DNA of 64,000 nucleotides. Source: Lachnospiraceae bacterium (GTDB taxonomy: Bacteria > Bacillota > Clostridia > Lachnospirales > Lachnospiraceae). The translations under genes were made by a program, and so were the position numbers. The stretch is taken from assembly GCA_045578645.1 (NCBI GenBank), contig JAZNKQ010000067.1, positions 8,295-72,294 on the forward strand. The letters run 5' to 3'. This document shows, one piece after another, positions 126 through 58,900 of the stretch. The notes beneath the pieces were generated by a model, which was not told where the DNA came from, ran no database searches, and was given only the letters and a program-made list of their open reading frames with translations. Every line of letters begins with the position of its first letter. Position 1 is the stretch's first letter.

Positions 126-2126
126 TTAAATCTCCTTTATCTTGATATATTTTGTTTTGGCGGTAAAAGGATCAAACATATGTCCGCCGCCGTTAAAGAA
201 TTTACCGAAAAATTCTACATACTGTAAACGGTTTGTATGAACATAAGCGCCTAAGATGTTAATAAGGAAGTTAAGCGTATGTCCAAATACAAAAATGATG
301 GTAAACAGGATAACCTTTACAATACCGCTTCCGGGCATTGCCGCCATCTGGTTGATAACGTTACCTATGATACCTGTTGCAAGACCCAGAGCAAGGAGTC
401 TTGAATATGAGAGGATATCACTGAGATAACTTGTTATTCCGTAGAGGCCGTAGGCTCCGAGTGCCAGCTTTCCGCCGATGCTCTTTGATTCGCGTCCTCC
501 GGTAAGAAGAACTCCGAGTGCACCGATGATGGCCATCCATTTACCTGCCTCGGCAAGAGGTCCGCTTATCGGCTCTCCGCCTCCGATGATATTCATGAAT
601 GTACTGGTTGACATGAGTGTTAATGCACATCCGCAAAGCAGGACAATCCATATGATACCGTCGCAGAAGCCGCCAAAAACATCTTTATTTTTACATGCCT
701 GTATGAAATTCATGATAAGTCCGCCGAAAATATGAATCAGACCGATTACCATTGAGAAAACAAGCATTCTCATCGGATCCTCATTGGGTGAGAACCACAG
801 CGGGTCTACATTAAATTCGGTTCCGAAGAAGGTTATTGAAACGCGGTAGAAGATATCGCCGAAATAGCTTCCGAAGATAATACCCCAGAAGGTGGTCGAA
901 ATACCGCAGAACTGGAACATACGAAGGAAGTTTCTCATTCCTGATTCCATGTTCTTGTACTTAGCAAGCAATATTGTTGTTGCAATCGTAAGAATAAGTC
1001 CGTAGCCTGCATCCGAGAACATAAGACCAAAAAGCATGTAATAGAATAATGACATTGCAAAGGTCGGGTCAAGCTCGTGCTTTCCGGGCGGGCTGTAGCT
1101 CTCGGTTATGCTCTCGAGGGGACGTGCGAAGCCGTTATTGCTGAATACAATCGGCGGCTCATCCTCCTCAGAGGGGGTCTCGATAAGGACAGATATATCA
1201 TATTTTGCTTCAAGTGCGCTCTTTAAGGCCTCGGAATCACGCTCCGTAATGTATCCGGTCAGCACAAAGGTGTGTTCTGACTGAACCAGCCTGTTAATAA
1301 CGCCGTATTTCTCCTGACGCATGCTTTCATAATCACGATAGAACTTAAGGGCATCACGCTTGTACTCGAAGGATTCGATTTCATGAATTGCATTTGATAT
1401 CTCTTCGTCGAGAACCTCAAGCTGCTGCTTATATTCAGCGAGCTGCTCTGCGGGAACGCGTGAACTGCTGATTGCGGGTCTTGCAAAGCCGTTGGCACGC
1501 AAAACATCATAAAGCTTTTCAGCATATTCCTTGAGACACATGATGTAAATACCTGTTTGCTCTTTAAGCTGACTGACTGCGTATGCATCGATTGGAGCAA
1601 AATCTGCCAAAAGCTCATACAGGGCTTCCTCGGTCCAGGTTCCGGGAAGAGTTCCGATATAGACCTCGGTTGTCTTGGTACCGGAGAATCCCGGTGCTAC
1701 ATCAAGTGTGCTCCAGGGCTCAAGTCCTTCGATAAGTGTCTGTAATTTAAGCTTTTCAGCCTTGTACTCGTAAATTGATTTTGACAGCGAAACCAGTGTC
1801 TGTGCTGCTTCTAAAGTGCTTGCGCGCTTTGTGTCAAACTCTGAGTACTGCTCCGGGGAAATAATTGTTCTGCCTTCGAAGGAAGACAGTAAGCCTGTCT
1901 TTTCACGAACGTGTGTGTTGAGGATTTCAAGTGCATTTTCCGTTGTCTGAATGTTCTTGGTAAATACCGACTGGATTTCGGACAAATCATTGCGCTTGAA
2001 GATTTCATCCTCATCAATAACATCCGTTATTTCGATGACTCCTTTTCGCTGCAGCTCTTCCAAGATAGCCTTACGGTTAGCCTTCAACGCACATATACTT
2101 ATGCGTTTCATTGGTAAGACTGCCAT
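126..2126 (-). CDS. ntpI: V-type ATP synthase subunit I (membrane a-subunit homologue)
   Basis: 666-aa ORF with a soluble coiled N-terminal half and a polytopic C-terminal half. It has the V-ATPase 116-kDa/I family architecture and sits between the G/H-like subunit and subunit K, as in ntp operons. Confidence 0.9.
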   Translation of the reverse strand: MAVLPMKRISICALKANRKAILEELQRKGVIEITDVIDEDEIFKRNDLSEIQSVFTKNIQTTENALEILNTHVREKTGLLSSFEGRTIISPEQYSEFDTKRASTLEAAQTLVSLSKSIYEYKAEKLKLQTLIEGLEPWSTLDVAPGFSGTKTTEVYIGTLPGTWTEEALYELLADFAPIDAYAVSQLKEQTGIYIMCLKEYAEKLYDVLRANGFARPAISSSRVPAEQLAEYKQQLEVLDEEISNAIHEIESFEYKRDALKFYRDYESMRQEKYGVINRLVQSEHTFVLTGYITERDSEALKSALEAKYDISVLIETPSEEDEPPIVFSNNGFARPLESITESYSPPGKHELDPTFAMSLFYYMLFGLMFSDAGYGLILTIATTILLAKYKNMESGMRNFLRMFQFCGISTTFWGIIFGSYFGDIFYRVSITFFGTEFNVDPLWFSPNEDPMRMLVFSMVIGLIHIFGGLIMNFIQACKNKDVFGGFCDGIIWIVLLCGCALTLMSTSTFMNIIGGGEPISGPLAEAGKWMAIIGALGVLLTGGRESKSIGGKLALGAYGLYGITSYLSDILSYSRLLALGLATGIIGNVINQMAAMPGSGIVKVILFTIIFVFGHTLNFLINILGAYVHTNRLQYVEFFGKFFNGGGHMFDPFTAKTKYIKIKEI

Positions 2127-2252
2127 ATTTTATTCCTCCATTCCGAAGCGTAGGTTCTGACAAAACCGGAGATTTTGTACAGTATCTGCGCACATATATG
2201 ACGCTTCGGCATACATATGCTGTTGATAATCGACTGCTTATACAGAACAAGG

Positions 2253-3415: not shown

Positions 3416-4291
3416 TTAGTACTTCTGCGCCGGAGCATAGAATTCAAAAATGACAGCATCGTTTTTCTCTTCAAGACGCTTAATATTATCACCCGGTCTT
3501 ACGGTCCAGACAAATTTCATGGCACCCATTGACTCGCAGAGCTTTACGGTAAAGCACTTTCCTTCCTTGTGGTAGGACGTAAAATGGGGTCTGGCGATTA
3601 CATTGGTAAGCAGGTGGGATAAAGCAAAGGCTACGGGACCAGAAAGTACTCCCTTGAAATCCGATGAGGGAGCGGACAGCTGGCCGCGGAGTATGTCGGG
3701 AGCGTTTTTCTTAAACCAGCCTACAATAAAGGGGCTGAAGCTTTCTATACAGTAAAGTCCCTTGTAGCTGCGCAGAAGCTCAAGTGTCTTTTGGCACAGA
3801 AGCGGGTTTTTCGGACCGTTTTTAAGCTCTACAAGGAGGGGAACTCTTCCGTCGACAGCTGCAAGAACCTCTGTGAAAAGAGGAATCTGTTCTTCCGTAC
3901 CGCAGAGGCGGAATTCCTTAAGCTCGTCATAGGTATAAAAATCTACCCTGTTGTCGATCCCGCAGACTCTGTTGAGAGTATCATCGTGGAAGACAACAAT
4001 CTGCTCGTCCTTTGTCAGCTGTAAATCAAGCTCAATTCCGTAACCGGCCTCAGTTGCGGCACGGAATGCGGCAAGAGAATTTTCGGGAATTTTCTTATCG
4101 GGGCTGTGGAGTCCGCGATGAGCAAGATTAAGATGATGAAACTTCCTGCGAAGCTCGTCGGCACCACGTCCGGGAGCAATAAGGAACAGTGTAATAAGGA
4201 ACAATACAAGAGCGATAAACAGCAGTACCGCTATAACTGAAATAATACTCGAGACCACGCCGGACCCGGGAAAAGAAAATAGGAAATTCAT
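3416..4291 (-). CDS. membrane-anchored glycerophosphodiester phosphodiesterase (GDPD family)
   Basis: Contains HRGLHSPDKKIPENSLAAFRAATEAGYGIELDLQLTKDEQIVVFHDDTLNRV, the GDPD catalytic signature, plus an N-terminal TM helix. The start at MNFLF is chosen because GGAG lies 6 nt upstream. Confidence 0.85.
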   Translation of the reverse strand: MNFLFSFPGSGVVSSIISVIAVLLFIALVLFLITLFLIAPGRGADELRRKFHHLNLAHRGLHSPDKKIPENSLAAFRAATEAGYGIELDLQLTKDEQIVVFHDDTLNRVCGIDNRVDFYTYDELKEFRLCGTEEQIPLFTEVLAAVDGRVPLLVELKNGPKNPLLCQKTLELLRSYKGLYCIESFSPFIVGWFKKNAPDILRGQLSAPSSDFKGVLSGPVAFALSHLLTNVIARPHFTSYHKEGKCFTVKLCESMGAMKFVWTVRPGDNIKRLEEKNDAVIFEFYAPAQKY

Positions 4292-4303
4292 ACTATGCTC
4301 CAT

Positions 4304-4402
4304 TTCTGAGCGACCTGTCGCGAGGAATATCATAATGGCTATTTGCTTTCGCTCAGAAACAAATAGCCGTGTGAAAAAGCATATTTATATGATTTTTCGC
4401 AC
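4304..4402 (-). repeat. conserved ~100-nt structured leader element, copy A (in the 5' UTR of the GDPD gene)
   Basis: The reverse complement aligns with copies at 45034-45130 and 48605-48700. The 35-mer GGCTATTTGTTTCTGAGCGAAAGCAAATAGCCATT is identical to copy B. Hairpin 1 has 2 mismatches here. Confidence 0.85.
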
Positions 4403-4441
4403 TATGCCTCCGATTTTAATCACTGCCATACGGCAGAAGAA

Positions 4442-4469
4442 ATTATAGCACAGGCAGATAAAAAATCAA
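4442..4469 (-). promoter_or_regulatory. sigma-A type promoter for the GDPD gene
   Basis: On the minus strand: TTGATT, a 16-nt spacer, then TATAAT. This places the repeat element inside the transcribed leader. Confidence 0.55.
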
Positions 4470-26926: not shown

Positions 26927-27009
26927 GCGGAAATGGCGGAATGGCAGACGCGCACGGTTCAGGTCCGTGTGATAGCAATATCATGAGGGTTCAAGTCCCT
27001 TTTTCCGCA
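26927..27009 (+). tRNA. tRNA-Leu (anticodon CAG), class II with a long variable arm; no encoded CCA
   Basis: Manual fold: acceptor GCGGAAA/TTTCCGC, anticodon stem CACGG/CCGTG, loop TTCAGGT, T-arm GAGGG TTCAAGT CCCTT. Confidence 0.9.
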
Positions 27010-33935: not shown

Positions 33936-35268
33936 TGACCTGGTTAAGATGGGGCTGCGTAATCTGTTGCGCAGGAAGGCGCGAACGGCGCTTACCGTTA
34001 TCGGTGTTATTATTGGTACAATTTCCATTGTTGTAATGTTTTCAATCGGTATCGGTATGAACGAGAGCTTTGAAAAATCAATCATGCAGAACGGAAGCAT
34101 GACTGTGATTGATGTAAGCTCAAATCAGTATGTGGAAAACGAAGACGGAAGCTGGTCCAGTACAAAGCAGACGCTTAATGATGATGTTGTGGAGCAGCTG
34201 AAGGCAATCGAGCACGTAAAAGCGGTTACCCCGATTCTGTACTGCTGGTCTGCCCAGTTCTACAGCGGCAAGTATCAGTCATGGCCGAATCTGATGGTTA
34301 TGGATATGGACTGCTACGAGGAATTCGGTTATCCGGTACTTGAAGACGGAACCTATCCGACAAAGGAAGAGGCGCTTGCCGGAACACTTTATTTCGGCTC
34401 GGAGTCACTTAATAATGAATTCTATTACTGGGACGGAAGAACCTCGAAAACAAAAGAGTTTGATTTTGAACATGATAAGCTTGAAATCAAGTTCAGTGAG
34501 TACCAGCAGAATGAGCGTAAGAAGGAATACTCGTTTCAGGTAGCGCAGCGAAAAAAGATTTCGGGAAGCGAAGGCGCATATTCGGAGGCTTCGTGGTACA
34601 CCTTTGTAGATATCGATTTATATAAGGAAATGTACCAGAAATATGCCAATACGCTGAAGGTTGATGACCGTAAAAAGGCGCTTGCATCGCTTAGCCAGTA
34701 TGAGACCATCAGGATAAATGTCGATAACATGAATAATGTTACCGAGGTGCAGGATACAATAGAGCTGCTCGGATACAAATCGAGCAGTGATATGCAGTAC
34801 ATAGAGCCGATGCAGGAAACCTCTGAAATGCTGCAGATTGTACTCGGTGCAATCGGAGGCATTGCCATGCTGGTATCTGCGATAAATATCGCCAATACCA
34901 TGATTATGTCAATATATGAGCGTACAAAGGAAATCGGTATTATGAAGGTGCTCGGATGCAAGGTTGTCGATGTTAAGAAGCTGTTTTTGTTTGAGGCGGG
35001 GCTTATAGGACTTATCGGCGGCATAATAGGTGTCGGACTGAGCTATCTTGCTTCGTGGGCGATTAATACATACGGTCAGGATATTTTCGCTTCGCTGATG
35101 AGCGGAAGCGTCGGTGTTGCGGAGGGTTCGGACTTTTCCGTTATTCCGTTCTGGCTGCCGTTTCTTGCTGCGGCCTTCGCAATCGCAGTCGGTATTCTGT
35201 CGGGATACCTTCCGGCGCGCAGGGCAACTAAGATATCTGCAATCGAGGCAATGAAATCGGCAGAGTAA
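33925..35268 (+). CDS. ABC transporter permease, FtsX/MacB family with a large extracytoplasmic domain
   Basis: N-terminus LRNLLRRKARTALTVIGVIIG, an external domain of about 250 aa, and a C-terminal FtsX 3-TM bundle. Confidence 0.85.
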   Translation: MKISDLVKMGLRNLLRRKARTALTVIGVIIGTISIVVMFSIGIGMNESFEKSIMQNGSMTVIDVSSNQYVENEDGSWSSTKQTLNDDVVEQLKAIEHVKAVTPILYCWSAQFYSGKYQSWPNLMVMDMDCYEEFGYPVLEDGTYPTKEEALAGTLYFGSESLNNEFYYWDGRTSKTKEFDFEHDKLEIKFSEYQQNERKKEYSFQVAQRKKISGSEGAYSEASWYTFVDIDLYKEMYQKYANTLKVDDRKKALASLSQYETIRINVDNMNNVTEVQDTIELLGYKSSSDMQYIEPMQETSEMLQIVLGAIGGIAMLVSAINIANTMIMSIYERTKEIGIMKVLGCKVVDVKKLFLFEAGLIGLIGGIIGVGLSYLASWAINTYGQDIFASLMSGSVGVAEGSDFSVIPFWLPFLAAAFAIAVGILSGYLPARRATKISAIEAMKSAE

Positions 35269-35290
35269 AATGCTCGGAATGGAGAATATA

Positions 35291-35686
35291 ATGAAATTCG
35301 AAGACGGTGGATTTAGACTGAAGAAAACGGATTTGCTGCTTCTGGCAGGTCTTCTTCTGTTGTCCGCCGTCTGTTTTTTTGCATACCGGTTTTTGGCGGC
35401 GGATGCGGGTACTGCGGTTGTGATAGCGGTTGACGGCGTAGCGGTCGGGGAGTATAGTCTGTATGAGAATCGGATTATTACAATAGAAGGAACAAATGGT
35501 ACGGATGTTCTTGAAATAAAAGACGGCTATGCAAGTATGCTGTCGGCAGAATGTCCGGATGGCATATGTGTAAAGCATTCTCCCGTAAATCGGAGCGGAG
35601 AAAGCATAATCTGTCTTCCGAACCGCATTTCGGTAAAGGTGGTTGCCGGAGACGGCGGGAGTTTAATCGACAGTATAGCAAGATAA
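35291..35686 (+). CDS. NusG domain II-containing (DUF1312) membrane-anchored protein
   Basis: The Cys pattern CPDGICV...IICLPN and its pairing with a Gx transporter gene are both recalled family traits. Confidence 0.6.
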   Translation: MKFEDGGFRLKKTDLLLLAGLLLLSAVCFFAYRFLAADAGTAVVIAVDGVAVGEYSLYENRIITIEGTNGTDVLEIKDGYASMLSAECPDGICVKHSPVNRSGESIICLPNRISVKVVAGDGGSLIDSIAR

Positions 35687-40984: not shown

Positions 40985-41125
40985 TGTGAATAGAATATTT
41001 ATAACATCTGCCCGTAGACAGTAGGTACCGTAAGGTGTAAGCGCAGCGCCTACCGAGGATACAGTTGCTTGTATTTGATATACGAATACTGCTTCCCTGT
41101 CACTGGCGGGGGAGCAGTTTTTAAT
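40985..41125 (+). promoter_or_regulatory. rplJ leader (L10-leader-like autoregulatory attenuator) preceded by a TTGACA-17-TATCTT promoter at 40947-40975
   Basis: A structured ~190-nt leader ends in the terminator-like hairpin ACTGCTTCCC...GGGGGAGCAGTTTTT (41088-41122) just before the rplJ SD. The assignment to the Rfam L10 leader is from memory and was not computed. Confidence 0.5.
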
Positions 41126-41165
41126 TATAATTGCTTCCCAATGAAACTATAAGGAGGTATATATC

Positions 41166-45021: not shown

Positions 45022-45033
45022 AATGGGAGGATA

Positions 45034-45130
45034 GTGTGAAAAATCATATATTAGATTTTTCACACGGCTATTTGTTTCTGAGCGAAAGCAAATAGCCATT
45101 GCGATATTCTTCGCGACAGGTCGCTTGGAG
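45034..45130 (+). repeat. conserved ~100-nt structured leader element, copy B (upstream of the PTS IIA gene)
   Basis: GTGTGAAAAATC-N8-GATTTTTCACAC (perfect 12-bp inverted repeat), GGCTATTTG-N14-CAAATAGCC, and a conserved 3' segment ending at the SD. Confidence 0.9.
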
Positions 45131-45142
45131 ATGGAGGATAAA

Positions 45143-45466
45143 ATGACTGACGAATTAATGGAGAAGCTTGAAGAAATTTCAATGATGATTATAGCGAATT
45201 CAGGGGCAGCGCGTTCAAACGCATTTGCTGCACTGGCAGAGGCAAAGCAGGGCAGATTCGAGGCTGCCGACGAGCTTTTAAAGGCTGCGGAGGAGAGTCT
45301 GCAGACAGCACATGAATCTCATAGAGAGCTGCTTAAGCTTGATGCAACCGGCGAAATTGAGAAGGTAAGTATTTTGCTTTGTCATGCGCAGGACCATCTG
45401 ATGGGCAGCGCTCTTGCAGGAGACCTGATAAAGGAAATGATATTGCTTTACAGGGATAAGAAATAA
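45143..45466 (+). CDS. PTS lactose/cellobiose-family EIIA
   Basis: 107 aa with the helical-bundle EIIA-Lac pattern (IIANSGAARS...HAQDHLM). GGAGG lies 5 nt upstream. Confidence 0.9.
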   Translation: MTDELMEKLEEISMMIIANSGAARSNAFAALAEAKQGRFEAADELLKAAEESLQTAHESHRELLKLDATGEIEKVSILLCHAQDHLMGSALAGDLIKEMILLYRDKK

Positions 45467-48578: not shown

Positions 48579-48604
48579 AGTTAAATTCTTCAAAATGGAG
48601 ACTA

Positions 48605-48700
48605 GTGTGAAAAATCATATATTATGATTTTTCACACAGCTATTTGTTTCTGAGCGAAAACAAATAGCCATTGCGGTATTCCTTGCGACAAGTCGCTCAG
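48605..48700 (+). repeat. conserved ~100-nt structured leader element, copy C (between the GH1 gene and ptsH)
   Basis: It has the same two hairpins and 3' segment as copies A and B, with 2 substitutions in the 35-nt core. Confidence 0.9.
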
Positions 48701-48714
48701 AAATGAGGATTGGT

Positions 48715-48981
48715 ATGGTTAAGAGAGAGGTTGAAATAATAAATAAGACAGGCCTGCATGCGCGCCCCGCATCAGATTTTGTCCTTAATGCCAAGAAATT
48801 TGAAAGTAAGATAACGGTCTGTAAAGAGGGCGGGGAGCCGGTTAATGCAAAATCAATTGTAAGGCTTCTTGCAGAGGGTATCGGACAAGGGGATAAAATT
48901 GAGATTACCGCAGCCGGTGAGGATGAAGCGGAAGCCCTTGACTGTCTGGCGGCATTGGTAGAAAGCGGATTCGGTGAGTGA
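48715..48981 (+). CDS. ptsH: phosphocarrier protein HPr
   Basis: 88 aa, with GLHARPA (His15) and NAKSIV (Ser46). Confidence 0.9.
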   Translation: MVKREVEIINKTGLHARPASDFVLNAKKFESKITVCKEGGEPVNAKSIVRLLAEGIGQGDKIEITAAGEDEAEALDCLAALVESGFGE

Positions 48982-55963: not shown

Positions 55964-58900
55964 ATGCAGATGATGTCTACAGATATGAATATGGATACTG
56001 TCAGGGAAATTAATTACGAGGCAATCAGAATCGGCCTTGCTTCCCCTGAGAAGATTCGTGAATGGTCTAGAGCAGAGGTTAAGAAGCCGGAGACTATAAA
56101 TTACAGAACATTAAAGCCTGAGAAGGACGGTCTGTTCTGTGAAAAGATTTTCGGACCCAGCAAGGATTGGGAGTGTCACTGCGGAAAGTACAAGAAAATC
56201 CGTTTTAAGGGTGTTGTATGTGACCGTTGTGGCGTAGAGGTTACCAAGGCAAGCGTAAGACGTGAGAGAATGGGTCACATCGAGCTTGCGGCACCGGTAT
56301 CGCACATTTGGTATTTCAAGGGTATTCCCAGCCGTATGGGACTTATGCTTGATCTTTCTCCGAGAACACTCGAGAAGGTTCTGTACTTCGCATCCTATAT
56401 CGTACTTGATAAGGGTGAGACAGATTTGCAGTATAAGCAGGTACTCAACGAGAAGGAATATACCGAGGCAAGAGAGAAATACAAGGATAAGAAGTTCCGT
56501 GTAGGAATGGGCGCAGAGGCCATTATGGAGCTTCTTAAGGATATAGATCTCGAGAAGGATTCTGCAGAGCTTAAGGCAGAGCTTAAAAACTCAACAGGCC
56601 AGAAGCGTGCAAGAATTATCAAGAGACTTGAGGTTGTAGAGGCATTCAGAGAGTCAGGAAACCGTCCCGAATGGATGATTATGACTGTTATTCCGGTGCT
56701 TCCGCCCGATCTTCGTCCCATGGTTCAGCTGGAGGGCGGACGTTTTGCAACCTCAGATATGAACGATTTATATCGTCGTATAATTAACAGAAATAATCGT
56801 CTTAAGAGACTCCTTGAGCTGGGAGCTCCCGATATCATTGTAAGAAATGAAAAGCGTATGCTTCAGGAAGCCGTTGATGCACTTATTGACAACGGAAGAA
56901 GAGGCAGACCTGTTACAGGTCCCGGAAACCGTCCGCTTAAGTCACTTTCTGATATGTTAAAGGGTAAGCAGGGTCGTTTCCGTCAGAACCTTCTCGGAAA
57001 GCGTGTTGACTATTCCGGACGTTCTGTTATCGTAGTAGGACCCGAGCTCAAGATATATCAGTGCGGTCTTCCTAAGGAGATGGCAATTGAGCTGTTTAAG
57101 CCCTTCGTTATGAAGGAGCTTGTTGAGCGCGGAACCGCTCATAATATTAAGTCAGCAAAGAAGATGGTCGAAAGACTTCAGAATGAGGTATGGGACGTTC
57201 TTGAGGACGTTATCCGTGAGCATCCCGTAATGCTTAACCGTGCTCCTACACTTCACAGACTCGGTATTCAGGCATTTGAGCCCATTCTTGTTGAGGGTAA
57301 GGCAATTAAGCTTCATCCGCTTGTATGTACCGCATTCAATGCAGACTTCGACGGAGATCAGATGGCTGTCCATCTTCCTCTGTCAGTTGAGGCGCAGGCT
57401 GAGGCACGTTTCCTCATGCTTTCACCCAACAACCTGCTGAAGCCTTCAGACGGTGGCCCCGTTGCAGTTCCTTCACAGGATATGGTACTTGGTATTTACT
57501 ACCTTACTCTTATGAAGGACGGAGATCTTGGTGAGGGTAAGATATTCAAGAACATAAACGAAGCTATTCTTGCTTACGAGAACGGAGCAATTACTCTTCA
57601 CGCAAAGATTAACGTAAGACGTGAGGGTATTTTCCCTGAGACCGGTGAGAAGATTACAAAGGTTATTCAGTCAACTCTCGGACGCTTTATCTTCAACGAG
57701 ATTATTTCACAGGATCTTGGCTATGTTGACAGAACAAATCCTGAGAATTACCTTGATCTTGAGGTTGATTTCCTTGTTAAGAAGAAGGAGCTTAAGGGAA
57801 TTCTTGAGAAGTGCATTAACACACACGGCGCTACAATGACCGCTGAGACACTTGATGCGATTAAGGCGCTGGGATATAAATACTCGACAAGAGCAGCAAT
57901 GACTGTTTCGATTTCGGATATGACAGTTCCTCCTGCAAAGAAGGATATTATTGCCAATGCCGAGGAGACAATTGACTTCATTTCGAAGAAGTTCCGTCGC
58001 GGTATGCTTACTGAAGCGGAAAGATATAAGACAGTTATCGAAACCTGGAAGGCTGCCGATGACAGCATTACCAAGGAGCTGATGGCAGGTCTTGATAAGT
58101 ACAACAACATCTTCATGATGGCTGATTCAGGAGCACGTGGTTATGACAAGTAGTTTAAGCAGCTTGCCGGTATGCGTGGACTTATGGCAGATACATCAGG
58201 TAAGACTATCGAGTTGCCTATTAAGGCTAACTTCCGTGAGGGTCTTGACGTTCTGGAATACTTCATTTCAGCTCACGGTGCAAGAAAGGGTCTTTCCGAT
58301 ACAGCGCTCAGAACTGCCGATTCAGGATACCTTACACGTCGTCTTGTTGACGTTTCACAGGATCTTATTATTCGTGAGAATGATTGCTGTGAGGGCAGTG
58401 AGGAAGTTCCCGGAATGTGGATTAAGGCATTTGCTGACGGTAAGGAAGTTATCGAGAGCCTTAAGGAGCGTATTACAGGAAGATTTGCATGTGAAACTCT
58501 TTATGATGATAACGGTGAAGTTATCGTTGAGAAGAATCATATGATTACTCCCAAGCGTGCTGCACGTATTGTTGCAACCAAGAGCATTGCGGAGAAGGGC
58601 TTTGCAGCAAGCATCAAGATTCGTACCGTTCTTACCTGTAAGTCACATCTCGGTGTCTGCGCTAAGTGTTACGGTGCTAACATGGCTACAGGTGAGCCTG
58701 TTCAGGTTGGTGAGGCAGTCGGTATTATTGCGGCACAGTCAATCGGTGAGCCCGGTACACAGCTTACAATGCGTACCTTCCATACCGGTGGTGTTGCGGG
58801 CGATGATATCACACAGGGTCTTCCCCGTGTCGAGGAGCTTTTCGAGGCAAGAAAGCCGAAGGGACTTGCAATCATTGCAGAGTTCGGCGGTACGGTTGCC

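Follow-up and report, generated by a model that had tools for sequence, protein, structure and literature searches.

The 64,000-nucleotide stretch of Lachnospiraceae DNA analysed here (contig JAZNKQ010000067.1, positions 8,295 to 72,294; hereafter the window) carries a repeated, structured leader element, the copies of which stand directly before protein genes. Three copies had been pointed out in an earlier note made from the sequence alone: copy A before the gene for a GDPD phosphodiesterase, copy B before an EIIA gene of the phosphotransferase system (PTS) and copy C before ptsH. Their coordinates and strands are correct, all three lie in sense to the downstream gene, the downstream products are GDPD, PTS_IIA and HPr as named, and both hairpin 1 (P1, a 12-bp stem in copies B and C) and hairpin 2 (P2) read as claimed. 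The proposed end of the element, 10-15 nt before the Shine-Dalgarno sequence (SD), was wrong; conservation without gaps extends across the SD as far as the ATG, and the conserved alignment of copies A, B and C also takes in a further SD-like box 5′ of P1. The core of P2 is an invariant 21-mer, GCTATTTGTTTCTGAGCGAAA, which occurs three times in the window against 0.00 expected in shuffled sequences. Its loop CTGAGCGA is complementary to TCGCTCAG in the 3′ segment (the tail) of copies A and C, and in copy B it pairs with the tail TCGCTTGG using two G-U pairs. An unfiltered covariance-model search revealed a fourth, diverged copy (copy D), whose P2 stem sequence differs from that of copies A-C and whose loop CCGAAGCGT and tail ACGCTTCGG are perfectly complementary over 9 nt and belong to a class that also occurs in L077, in L098 and in copies from metagenomes. 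As copy D scores just 18 bits, the family is probably broader than the covariance model detects.

Copies B and C are intercistronic, and the gene 5′ of copy B codes for a PRD protein of 850 aa that has an AAA domain resembling those of sigma-54 activators. A strong sigma-70 promoter predicted just 5′ of copy A would put the entire element in the 5′ untranslated region of the GDPD gene, and a possible sigma-70 promoter lies 5′ of copy C; no convincing internal sigma-70 promoter was found within the element. In the minimum free energy (MFE) fold of copy B, UAUUCUUC is paired to GGAGGAUA. The positions of all parts are collected in Table 1. At window positions 48703 and 4333 the SD context (AAATGAGG / ATG...) gives an in-frame ATG 12 or 42 nt 5′ of the true start, and the listing of open reading frames (ORFs) accordingly places the HPr start at 48703 (true start 48715) and the GDPD start at 4333 (true start 4291); gene callers could mis-set starts at other copies of the element in the same way.

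Table 1. Parts of the four leader elements and other features of the window (positions of the window, read 5′ to 3′ on the strand given)
Feature	Position	Strand	Remarks
Copy B, 5′ SD-like box AATGGGAGGATA	45022-45033	+	directly 3′ of the regulator stop codon
Copy B, P1	45034-45065	+	12-bp stem with A-tract and U-tract arms
Copy B, P2	45066-45097	+	GGCTATTTGTTT / loop CTGAGCGA (45078-45085) / AAGCAAATAGCC
Copy B, linker TATTCTTC	45098-45112	+	pyrimidine, anti-SD-like stretch, in place of P3
Copy B, P4	45113-45124	+	small hairpin GCGAC AG GTCGC; 3′ arm overlaps the tail
Copy B, tail TCGCTTGG	45121-45128	+	complement of the P2 loop, two G-U
Copy B, SD GGAGG, spacer and start codon	45133-45145	+	PTS EIIA ATG at 45143; 3′ end of the repeat unit
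Copy C, whole unit	48590-48717	+	78.5 bits; precedes ptsH
Copy C, 5′ box	48590-48604	+	
Copy C, P1	48605-48637	+	
Copy C, P2	48638-48669	+	loop 48650-48657
Copy C, P4	48685-48696	+	
Copy C, tail	48693-48700	+	
Copy C, SD	48705-48709	+	
Copy C, ATG	48715-48717	+	
Copy A, whole unit	4289-4416	-	76.5 bits; precedes the GDPD gene
Copy A, 5′ box	~4416-4403	-	
Copy A, P1	4402-4369	-	
Copy A, P2	4368-4337	-	loop 4356-4349
Copy A, P4	4321-4310	-	
Copy A, tail	4313-4306	-	
Copy A, SD	4301-4298	-	
Copy A, ATG	4291-4289	-	
Predicted sigma-70 promoter	4442-4469	-	TTGATT-16-TATAAT with extended TG; 10/12 consensus matches; consensus only
Copy D, whole unit	2124-2220	-	18.4 bits, E 0.008; no P1; precedes the gene for V-type ATPase subunit I
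Copy D, P2	2220-2190	-	loop CCGAAGCGT 2209-2201
Copy D, tail ACGCTTCGG	2151-2143	-	
Copy D, SD GGAGG	2139-2135	-	
Copy D, ATG	2126-2124	-	
Ribosomal protein L10 leader (RF00557)	40994-41132	+	71 bits; 5′ of rplJ; ordinary
Long-arm tRNA	26927-27009	+	51.8 bits; ordinary

A leader family at Lachnospiraceae start codons

A scan of a one-genome-per-species collection with an 18-mer from P2 listed at least 110 stretches. About 96 of them are true elements in Lachnospiraceae assemblies, the carrier genera among the matches listed being Acetatifactor, Roseburia, Lachnospira, 'Eubacterium' and Lachnoclostridium; the remaining stretches, from unrelated phyla, match the 18-mer and nothing more, in a number close to the chance expectation. 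A covariance model, as the earlier note had proposed, was built from 58 cores and searched against the loci from the scan, and revealed at least 108-109 copies in about 50 genomes, some of them without the seed 18-mer, with the pairings kept across many genomes of gut Lachnospiraceae. The copy numbers from this collection and from the metagenome scan described below are lower bounds; one incomplete genome holds at least 13 copies, and the range per genome is 1 to 13 among the matches listed. The cassette, as the unit is called hereafter, is about 80-150 nt long and has the order optional P1, P2, optional P3, an anti-SD-like CCUC or CUUC, P4, an 8-10-nt tail, the SD, a spacer of about 6 nt and the AUG, the extended SD reading AGAAAUGAGG or GGAAUGGAGG. 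The typical long form of other genomes has a 17-20-bp hairpin with a bulged A (P3) between P2 and the 3′ segment, and the window copies are a short form in which ATTGCGATATTC stands in place of P3. Many family members are devoid of P1, and several subfamilies coexist within one genome.

The placement of the cassette is uniform. An ORF of at least 60 aa is abutted by 89 of the 108 copies, always in sense, and in 78 copies the start codon is exactly the last three positions of the model. Most of the other copies either sit inside tandem arrays or have another SD and start codon slightly further on, and manual re-checking of the 19 copies without a long ORF found none inside a gene. Every reverse-strand match of the model overlaps the palindromic P1 or P2 of a sense copy. 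Random orientation and intragenic copies, which the earlier note had named as signs of a repeat like the miniature inverted-repeat transposable elements (MITEs) or REP sequences, were looked for among these copies and were not found. Two complete subfamily-2 cassettes of a common human-gut organism, L127 7880-8100 (-) and 9410-9565 (+), point outward about 1.5 kb apart, each ending at the start codon of the gene on its outer side, and the pair recurs at the same locus in metagenome contigs (L138, L156, L159 and L177). Extra mini-palindromes GCGAAC-N2-4-GTTCGC were observed in or beside cassettes of L029, L030 and L100 (one genome), of L036 and L099, and of L094, L095 and L088; they resemble a duplicated P4 in some copies and replace P1 in others, which shows shuffling of modules, and their spacing does not fit a LexA (Cheo) box. 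In the window, a 20-nt stop-to-start junction at 35266-35293 (+), TAAAATGCTCGGAATGGAGAATATAATG, closely resembles the tail, SD and spacer of subfamily 2 with no P2 upstream, and may be a solo 3′ remnant or a native site of the type from which the cassette derives or which it targets.

The downstream genes are heterogeneous. The 75 proteins fall into 119 Pfam families with at most four proteins per family, including RecA, Dus, tRNA methyltransferases, HAD hydrolases, glycosidases and ABC transporters, and the functionally coherent gene set expected of a metabolite riboswitch or a dedicated leader was not found among them. As regards an integron, the cassettes of which would be clustered in arrays beside an integrase, inspection shows the copies scattered in front of core genes, among them recA, ptsH and the V-ATPase gene; no integrase search was made. 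This breadth, at least 108 copies in about 50 genomes, speaks against the small carbon-uptake regulon suggested in the earlier note, in which the cassette would be an operator or cis-acting RNA and the neighbouring LevR-like regulator would bind DNA at hairpin 1. In favour of such a regulon, PTS genes beside a PRD/AAA regulator follow two of the four copies in the window, and hairpin 1 is a perfect palindrome. Syntenic operons with an orthologous PRD/AAA regulator nevertheless have no element at either junction (L114, L115), about 100 other copies precede unrelated genes, most of them unlinked to PTS genes, and hairpin 1 is optional and also precedes unrelated genes, so a regulon of this kind is highly improbable, and a LevR/PRD operator or RAT antiterminator target was rejected as an identity. 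No sigma-54 promoter (TGGCA-N7-TGC at -24/-12) was found in or beside the elements, in agreement with the earlier note, and across the window such motifs occur at chance level, 46 being found against 52 expected. By inspection, hairpin 1 has the wrong spacing for a CRP-type TGTGA-N6-TCACA site and contains no cre core. The description of the element as unrecognised holds for Rfam 15: at gathering thresholds only the L10 leader and the tRNA of Table 1 pass in the window, and permissive searches gave nothing relevant at E <=10 on copy B and nothing at E <=0.1 on eight long-form loci.

Loop, P4 arm and tail

Across 58 copies, P2, P3 and P4 are 90% paired, compared with 39-50% in slid controls, and their covariation amounts to 110 doubly changed cells, a value reached by 0 of 500 shuffles; P2 by itself is 98.9% paired over these copies and shows compensatory changes. 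Independent compensatory changes strongly confirm that the hairpin-2 loop pairs with the 3′ segment beside the SD, as the earlier note had proposed in the form of a pseudoknot or an alternative stem. In the 109-copy alignment, 98% of the 941 cells of the loop-tail helix are paired and three pairs change on both sides, which none of 500 shuffles matches. In those genomes the model search also brought out a second subfamily, whose loop reads CCGGAGCG and whose tail reads CGCUCCGG, together with the loop/tail variants CCGAAGCG/CGCUUCGG, CCGCAGGCG/CGUCUGCGG and CUGGAGCA/UGCUCUGG. Since most of the 109 copies had been seeded with the loop, an independent metagenome scan was performed in which only the P2 stem of subfamily 2 was fixed and the loop was left free. 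It returned at least 46 distinct loop/tail combinations, which group in classes each with its own 8-10-nt complement; at least five such classes are CCGGAGCGU/ACGCUCCGG, CCGAAGCGC/GCGCUUCGG, CCGCAGGCAC/GUGCCUGCGG, CCGUAGACGC/GCGUCUACGG and CCGGAGCAU/AUGCUCCGG. Covariation likewise links this tail to the 5′ arm of P4 (GCGAC/GUCGC, GGCAC/GUGCC, GACGC/GCGUC and GGCAUU/AAUGCC). As the P4 arm and the P2 loop both covary with the tail, the tail has two mutually exclusive partners, both of which are maintained.

G-U pairs outnumber A-C mismatches by 26:4 in P2 and by 35:7 in the loop-tail helix, indicating selection on the sense strand, most simply as mRNA, in keeping with the RNA option of the earlier note. 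The corresponding ratio in P1 is 14:21, with no sense-strand bias, and P1 may be a DNA-level or neutral palindrome. Two unannotated contigs from human faeces labelled 'Bacteriophage sp.' (MT836788.1, 2065-2118; MT838414.1, 1699-1752) match the 5′ box and P1 alone (83% over 54 nt), and P1 may be a separate module that is distributed independently of the rest.

A pyrimidine stretch (CCUCUUC or UUCCUCC) is conserved 15-25 nt 5′ of the SD in all subfamilies, and RNAalifold pairs its CUUC with the SD. Constrained folding of 102 copies gave two nested states that differ by E_B - E_A = -2.0 +/- 3.2 kcal/mol; such near-equal modelled energies are compatible with a bistable element. The 9-10-nt loop cannot pair fully while the 11-12-bp P2 stem is closed, and the loop-tail complementarity would be a partial pseudoknot, an alternative long helix or a toehold-type exchange with P4. 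In subfamily 1 the alternative helix comprises 15 contiguous pairs between the P2 5′ arm plus loop and the tail, AAA and the first SD bases, and it appears in the MFE fold of copy C.

From these patterns we favour, at a probability of roughly one half, the reading that the copies are a large family of modular, SD-carrying, duplicative leader cassettes whose two-state fold tunes ribosome access. The cassette would be transcribed as part of the mRNA of the downstream gene, and its tail would pair either locally, in P4, or with the P2 loop, giving two exclusive folds (or a pseudoknot) directly 5′ of the SD, by which access of the 30S subunit to the cassette's own SD would be tuned or gated. Cassettes would multiply within genomes by a duplicative or transpositional route, and the copies would then be kept by selection. 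Both the function and the mode of spread are inferred from sequence comparison.

The same sequences can be read as a generic host-beneficial post-transcriptional module instead of a switch, namely an intercistronic insulator or processing site, in which P1 would be a 3′ stabiliser or weak terminator of the upstream cistron, P2 a 5′ stabiliser with a strong extended SD, and spread would proceed via recombination at SD microhomology. About 70 of the 108 copies have a same-strand ORF of at least 80 aa ending no more than 400 nt upstream, usually just before P1 (an approximate count from a rough ORF screen), and the A-tract/U-tract arms of P1 were flagged as terminator-like. The extended SD AGAAAUGAGG fits 9 of 10 positions of the complement of the 16S rRNA 3′ tail usual in Firmicutes. 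The strong conservation of the core and the character of the two SD boxes, the 5′ ones being like ordinary host SDs and the 3′ ones element-like, also suit such a module. It leaves unexplained, however, the two exclusive covarying pairings of the tail, and P1 and P3 are dispensable; we consider an insulator decidedly unlikely. Somewhat more improbable still is a leader bound by a trans-acting global factor (an RNA-binding protein, small RNA or ligand) that would favour one fold and so co-regulate translation of a large heterogeneous gene set, as S15 does when it traps the rpsO pseudoknot. Stems as well as loops are very highly conserved at orthologous loci, two hairpins are opposed to a pseudoknot beside the SD, and several subfamilies occur within one genome, all of which would suit a common factor. 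The free covariation of loop and tail among classes, however, speaks against sequence-specific recognition of the helix, the target genes are functionally incoherent, no candidate factor is known, copy number varies widely among the genomes sampled (1 to 13 among the matches listed), and the family shows turnover from one lineage to another.

Apparent gain and spread, and conservation of the core

Public sequences nearest to the window PtsI reach only 71-76% identity, and the exact window HPr sequence is not on record in public assemblies. The operon regulator-EIIA-EIIB-EIIC-GH1-HPr-PtsI is syntenic in the relatives L114 and L115/L116. The regulator-EIIA gap is 121 nt in the window versus 28 nt in L114, L115 and L116, and the GH1-HPr gap is 136 nt versus 17-56 nt; at these two junctions of the relatives the covariance model has no match, and the gaps hold a plain SD alone. 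Because the sites of both syntenic relatives are empty, gain of copies B and C in the lineage of the window is a simpler reading than parallel loss. Both copies stand between the apparent old SD of the gene and its start codon, and the 5′ box of copy B is probably the former SD and spacer, since the empty sites of the relatives hold a plain SD of similar length there.

Multiplication within genomes is suggested by the nearest relatives of the copies: for 55 of 83 copies the nearest relative lies in the copy's own genome, where chance would give 3. Copies A-C of the window share a private short form, and tandem units exist in the family. Orthologous sites are also present, the same gene carrying the cassette in three species (L094, L095 and L108) and another gene in two (L016 and L019). 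The orthologous 112-114-nt cores are 96% identical, compared with 62-73% at the four-fold degenerate sites of the adjacent gene, and their P1 regions differ by indels. With the core conserved and P1 varying, constraint falls on P2, the tail and the SD.

The 5′ flank (4 nt before P1) ends in TA in 49 of 65 copies. The 3′ end of most copies reads NNTA (positions -6 to -3 relative to the start codon), and two variable bases separate it from the ATG. Terminal inverted repeats were looked for by inspection of more than 100 copies and were not seen: the 5′ end GTGTGAAAAAT... is not the reverse complement of the 3′ end ...AAATGAGGATTA. The two SD boxes that flank one copy are slightly more alike than chance would give (permutation p 0.0008), a weak excess that comes from a few copies; their common substring is at least 12 nt in four copies (17 nt in L063, 12 nt in L098), and the longest common substring is at most 5 nt in 42 of 59 copies. 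None of 2.9 million viral contigs carries the cassette, one match proving to be a chance 18-mer, and 72,556 plasmids gave no match. Several full, high-scoring cassettes were observed in metagenome-assembled genomes (MAGs) with names from outside the Firmicutes, namely those labelled Bacteroides fragilis NALB_7861_10 (L010, L011 and L023) and Gastranaerophilales NALB_7961_9 (L049, L066, L086 and L097), likely through mis-binning or mislabelling; if real, their presence there would imply horizontal transfer.

As to how the family arose and spread, a serious rival is purely selfish, non-autonomous mobile DNA (MITE-, PATE- or REP-like) that targets the spacer between SD and start codon. The carried SD would then merely make insertion tolerable, and the hairpins and the loop-tail pairing would serve transposition, for example as single-stranded DNA. 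The empty syntenic sites, the genome-specific variants, the tandem and nested units, the unrelated downstream genes, the TA at both junctions and the likeness of the flanking SD boxes are what such an element would leave. It would also be expected to have terminal inverted repeats, of which inspection shows none, and a long target-site duplication, which is missing in most copies, and to vary in orientation and position, both of which are invariant among the copies analysed; orthologous copies are conserved far above neutral sites, unlike a decaying insertion, the bias to G-U over A-C fits sense RNA, phage and plasmid collections are free of the cassette, and no transposase has been linked to it, the analysis covering 8-kb stretches around the copies and no search being aimed at one. 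On balance, a purely selfish element is unlikely. An ordinary MITE or REP sequence was rejected on its lack of terminal inverted repeats, its fixed orientation and position and its slow evolution. Two coding identities were also rejected. For an in-frame coding repeat like the RPE of Rickettsia, the frame of the ATG is open over a median of only 81 nt, reaching at least 150 nt in 14 of 94 copies; for a leader peptide starting at the start-like codon of the 5′ box, the frame shifts with the length of P1 and meets an early stop in copies B and C.

Several points weigh against the favoured reading of a duplicative cassette with a two-state fold. In modelling, the SD has a mean unpaired probability of 0.34 in both states with no consistent change, the accessibility of individual copies shifting in either direction, and a pseudoknot and an alternative helix cannot be told apart for the loop-tail pairing. 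The seed patterns fixed part of P2, alignment A4 was fitted to the model, and most of the covariation comes from a limited number of subfamily events. The identity of orthologous copies could come from gene conversion, not from selection at each locus. All-against-all BLAST of overlapping loci revealed no insertion polymorphism between close strains, the sole candidate being an unrelated 90-nt coding indel, and no transposase or other mobilising function was identified in the 8-kb stretches. A bolder version sees in the cassette a bacterial genetic element of a new kind: a self-propagating 'ribosome-binding-site cassette' would home to the SD-start spacer, replace the SD and install a bistable fold with the P2 loop and the P4 arm competing for the tail. 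It is put forward tentatively, as possible and short of probable. If true, it would mean a common translational control point, the host's or the element's own, on dozens of unrelated genes per genome in a family that dominates among gut bacteria.

Relation to known systems and significance

No description of the cassette was found in the literature, for which literal sequences were also used as queries; coverage was incomplete, so an earlier description is possible. Among interspersed repeats, the BOX elements of Streptococcus pneumoniae (boxA-boxB-boxC) are likewise short, modular, multi-copy intergenic repeats of a Firmicute, in which modules are lost or duplicated, which have no transposase of their own and which are co-transcribed with their neighbours as stable RNA hairpins. 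They differ from the cassette in that they occur in either orientation and at variable distance from genes, are not known to carry an SD or to end at a start codon, and have no documented covarying loop-tail pairing; no sequence relationship was seen and none was tested. Correia elements (Neisseria) and ERIC and REP/BIME sequences (enterobacteria) are also structured repeats scattered through genomes; they are transcribed and can change gene expression or the stability of mRNA, and the TA at both cassette junctions brings to mind the TA target of Correia elements. Unlike the cassette, they have terminal inverted repeats or are simple palindromes, occur in both orientations and are not bound to start codons. 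The palindrome-associated elements (PATEs) derived from IS200/IS605 and REP/RAYT systems share with the cassette the absence of terminal inverted repeats and of a regular target duplication, strong subterminal hairpins, strand-specific insertion beside a short motif (in the cassette, (A/T)TA at the left flank and right end) and tandem insertions. The internal complementarity of the cassette is 8-10 nt, far longer than the 3-4-nt guide pairings of IS608, these systems are not known to be strictly tied to start codons, and no Y1 transposase of their type is linked to the cassette, though no search was aimed at one.

Among SD-proximal switches, the translational operator of E. coli rpsO (ribosomal protein S15), in which two hairpins are in equilibrium with a pseudoknot beside the SD, resembles the cassette: a hairpin loop and a local hairpin compete for the segment next to the SD, where the 30S subunit binds. 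It differs in being single-copy, autoregulatory and bound by its own product, and the best score of the Rfam S15 leader models was 16.5 bits against a cut-off of 46.5 bits and lay outside the element. Expression platforms of riboswitches have similar exclusive helices at the SD, an anti-SD-like pyrimidine stretch and covariation on the sense strand, whereas the cassette precedes incoherent genes, occurs in near-identical copies within a genome, was apparently gained in single lineages and has no Rfam family. By analogy, the closest known mechanistic counterpart would be the rpsO operator, and the closest evolutionary one would be modular co-transcribed repeats such as the pneumococcal BOX elements, the subject of Croucher et al. 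2011 (PMC3049150). The cassette thus appears akin to both structured interspersed repeats and SD-proximal RNA switches, is set apart from them by its carried SD, its start-codon end and its three-way covarying switch, and is apparently uncatalogued.

Elsewhere in the window, rpoC is split at 58151-58153 (+) by a single in-frame TAG in a highly conserved region, with no frameshift; the first of the two resulting ORFs has 729 aa and Rpb1 domains 1-3, the second 558 aa and Rpb1 domain 5. The TAG could be a sequencing error, a recoded or read-through codon, or the boundary of a genuinely split beta′ subunit.

Lachnospiraceae are among the most abundant bacteria of the human gut, and to our knowledge almost nothing is known of their post-transcriptional control. 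If the cassette is mobile, it would be, as far as we know, the first repeat that targets translation start sites. If its two-state fold gates translation, the family would represent a large, previously unseen layer of gene control in these bacteria, and would provide a natural portable ribosome-binding-site insulator useful for engineering Lachnospiraceae.

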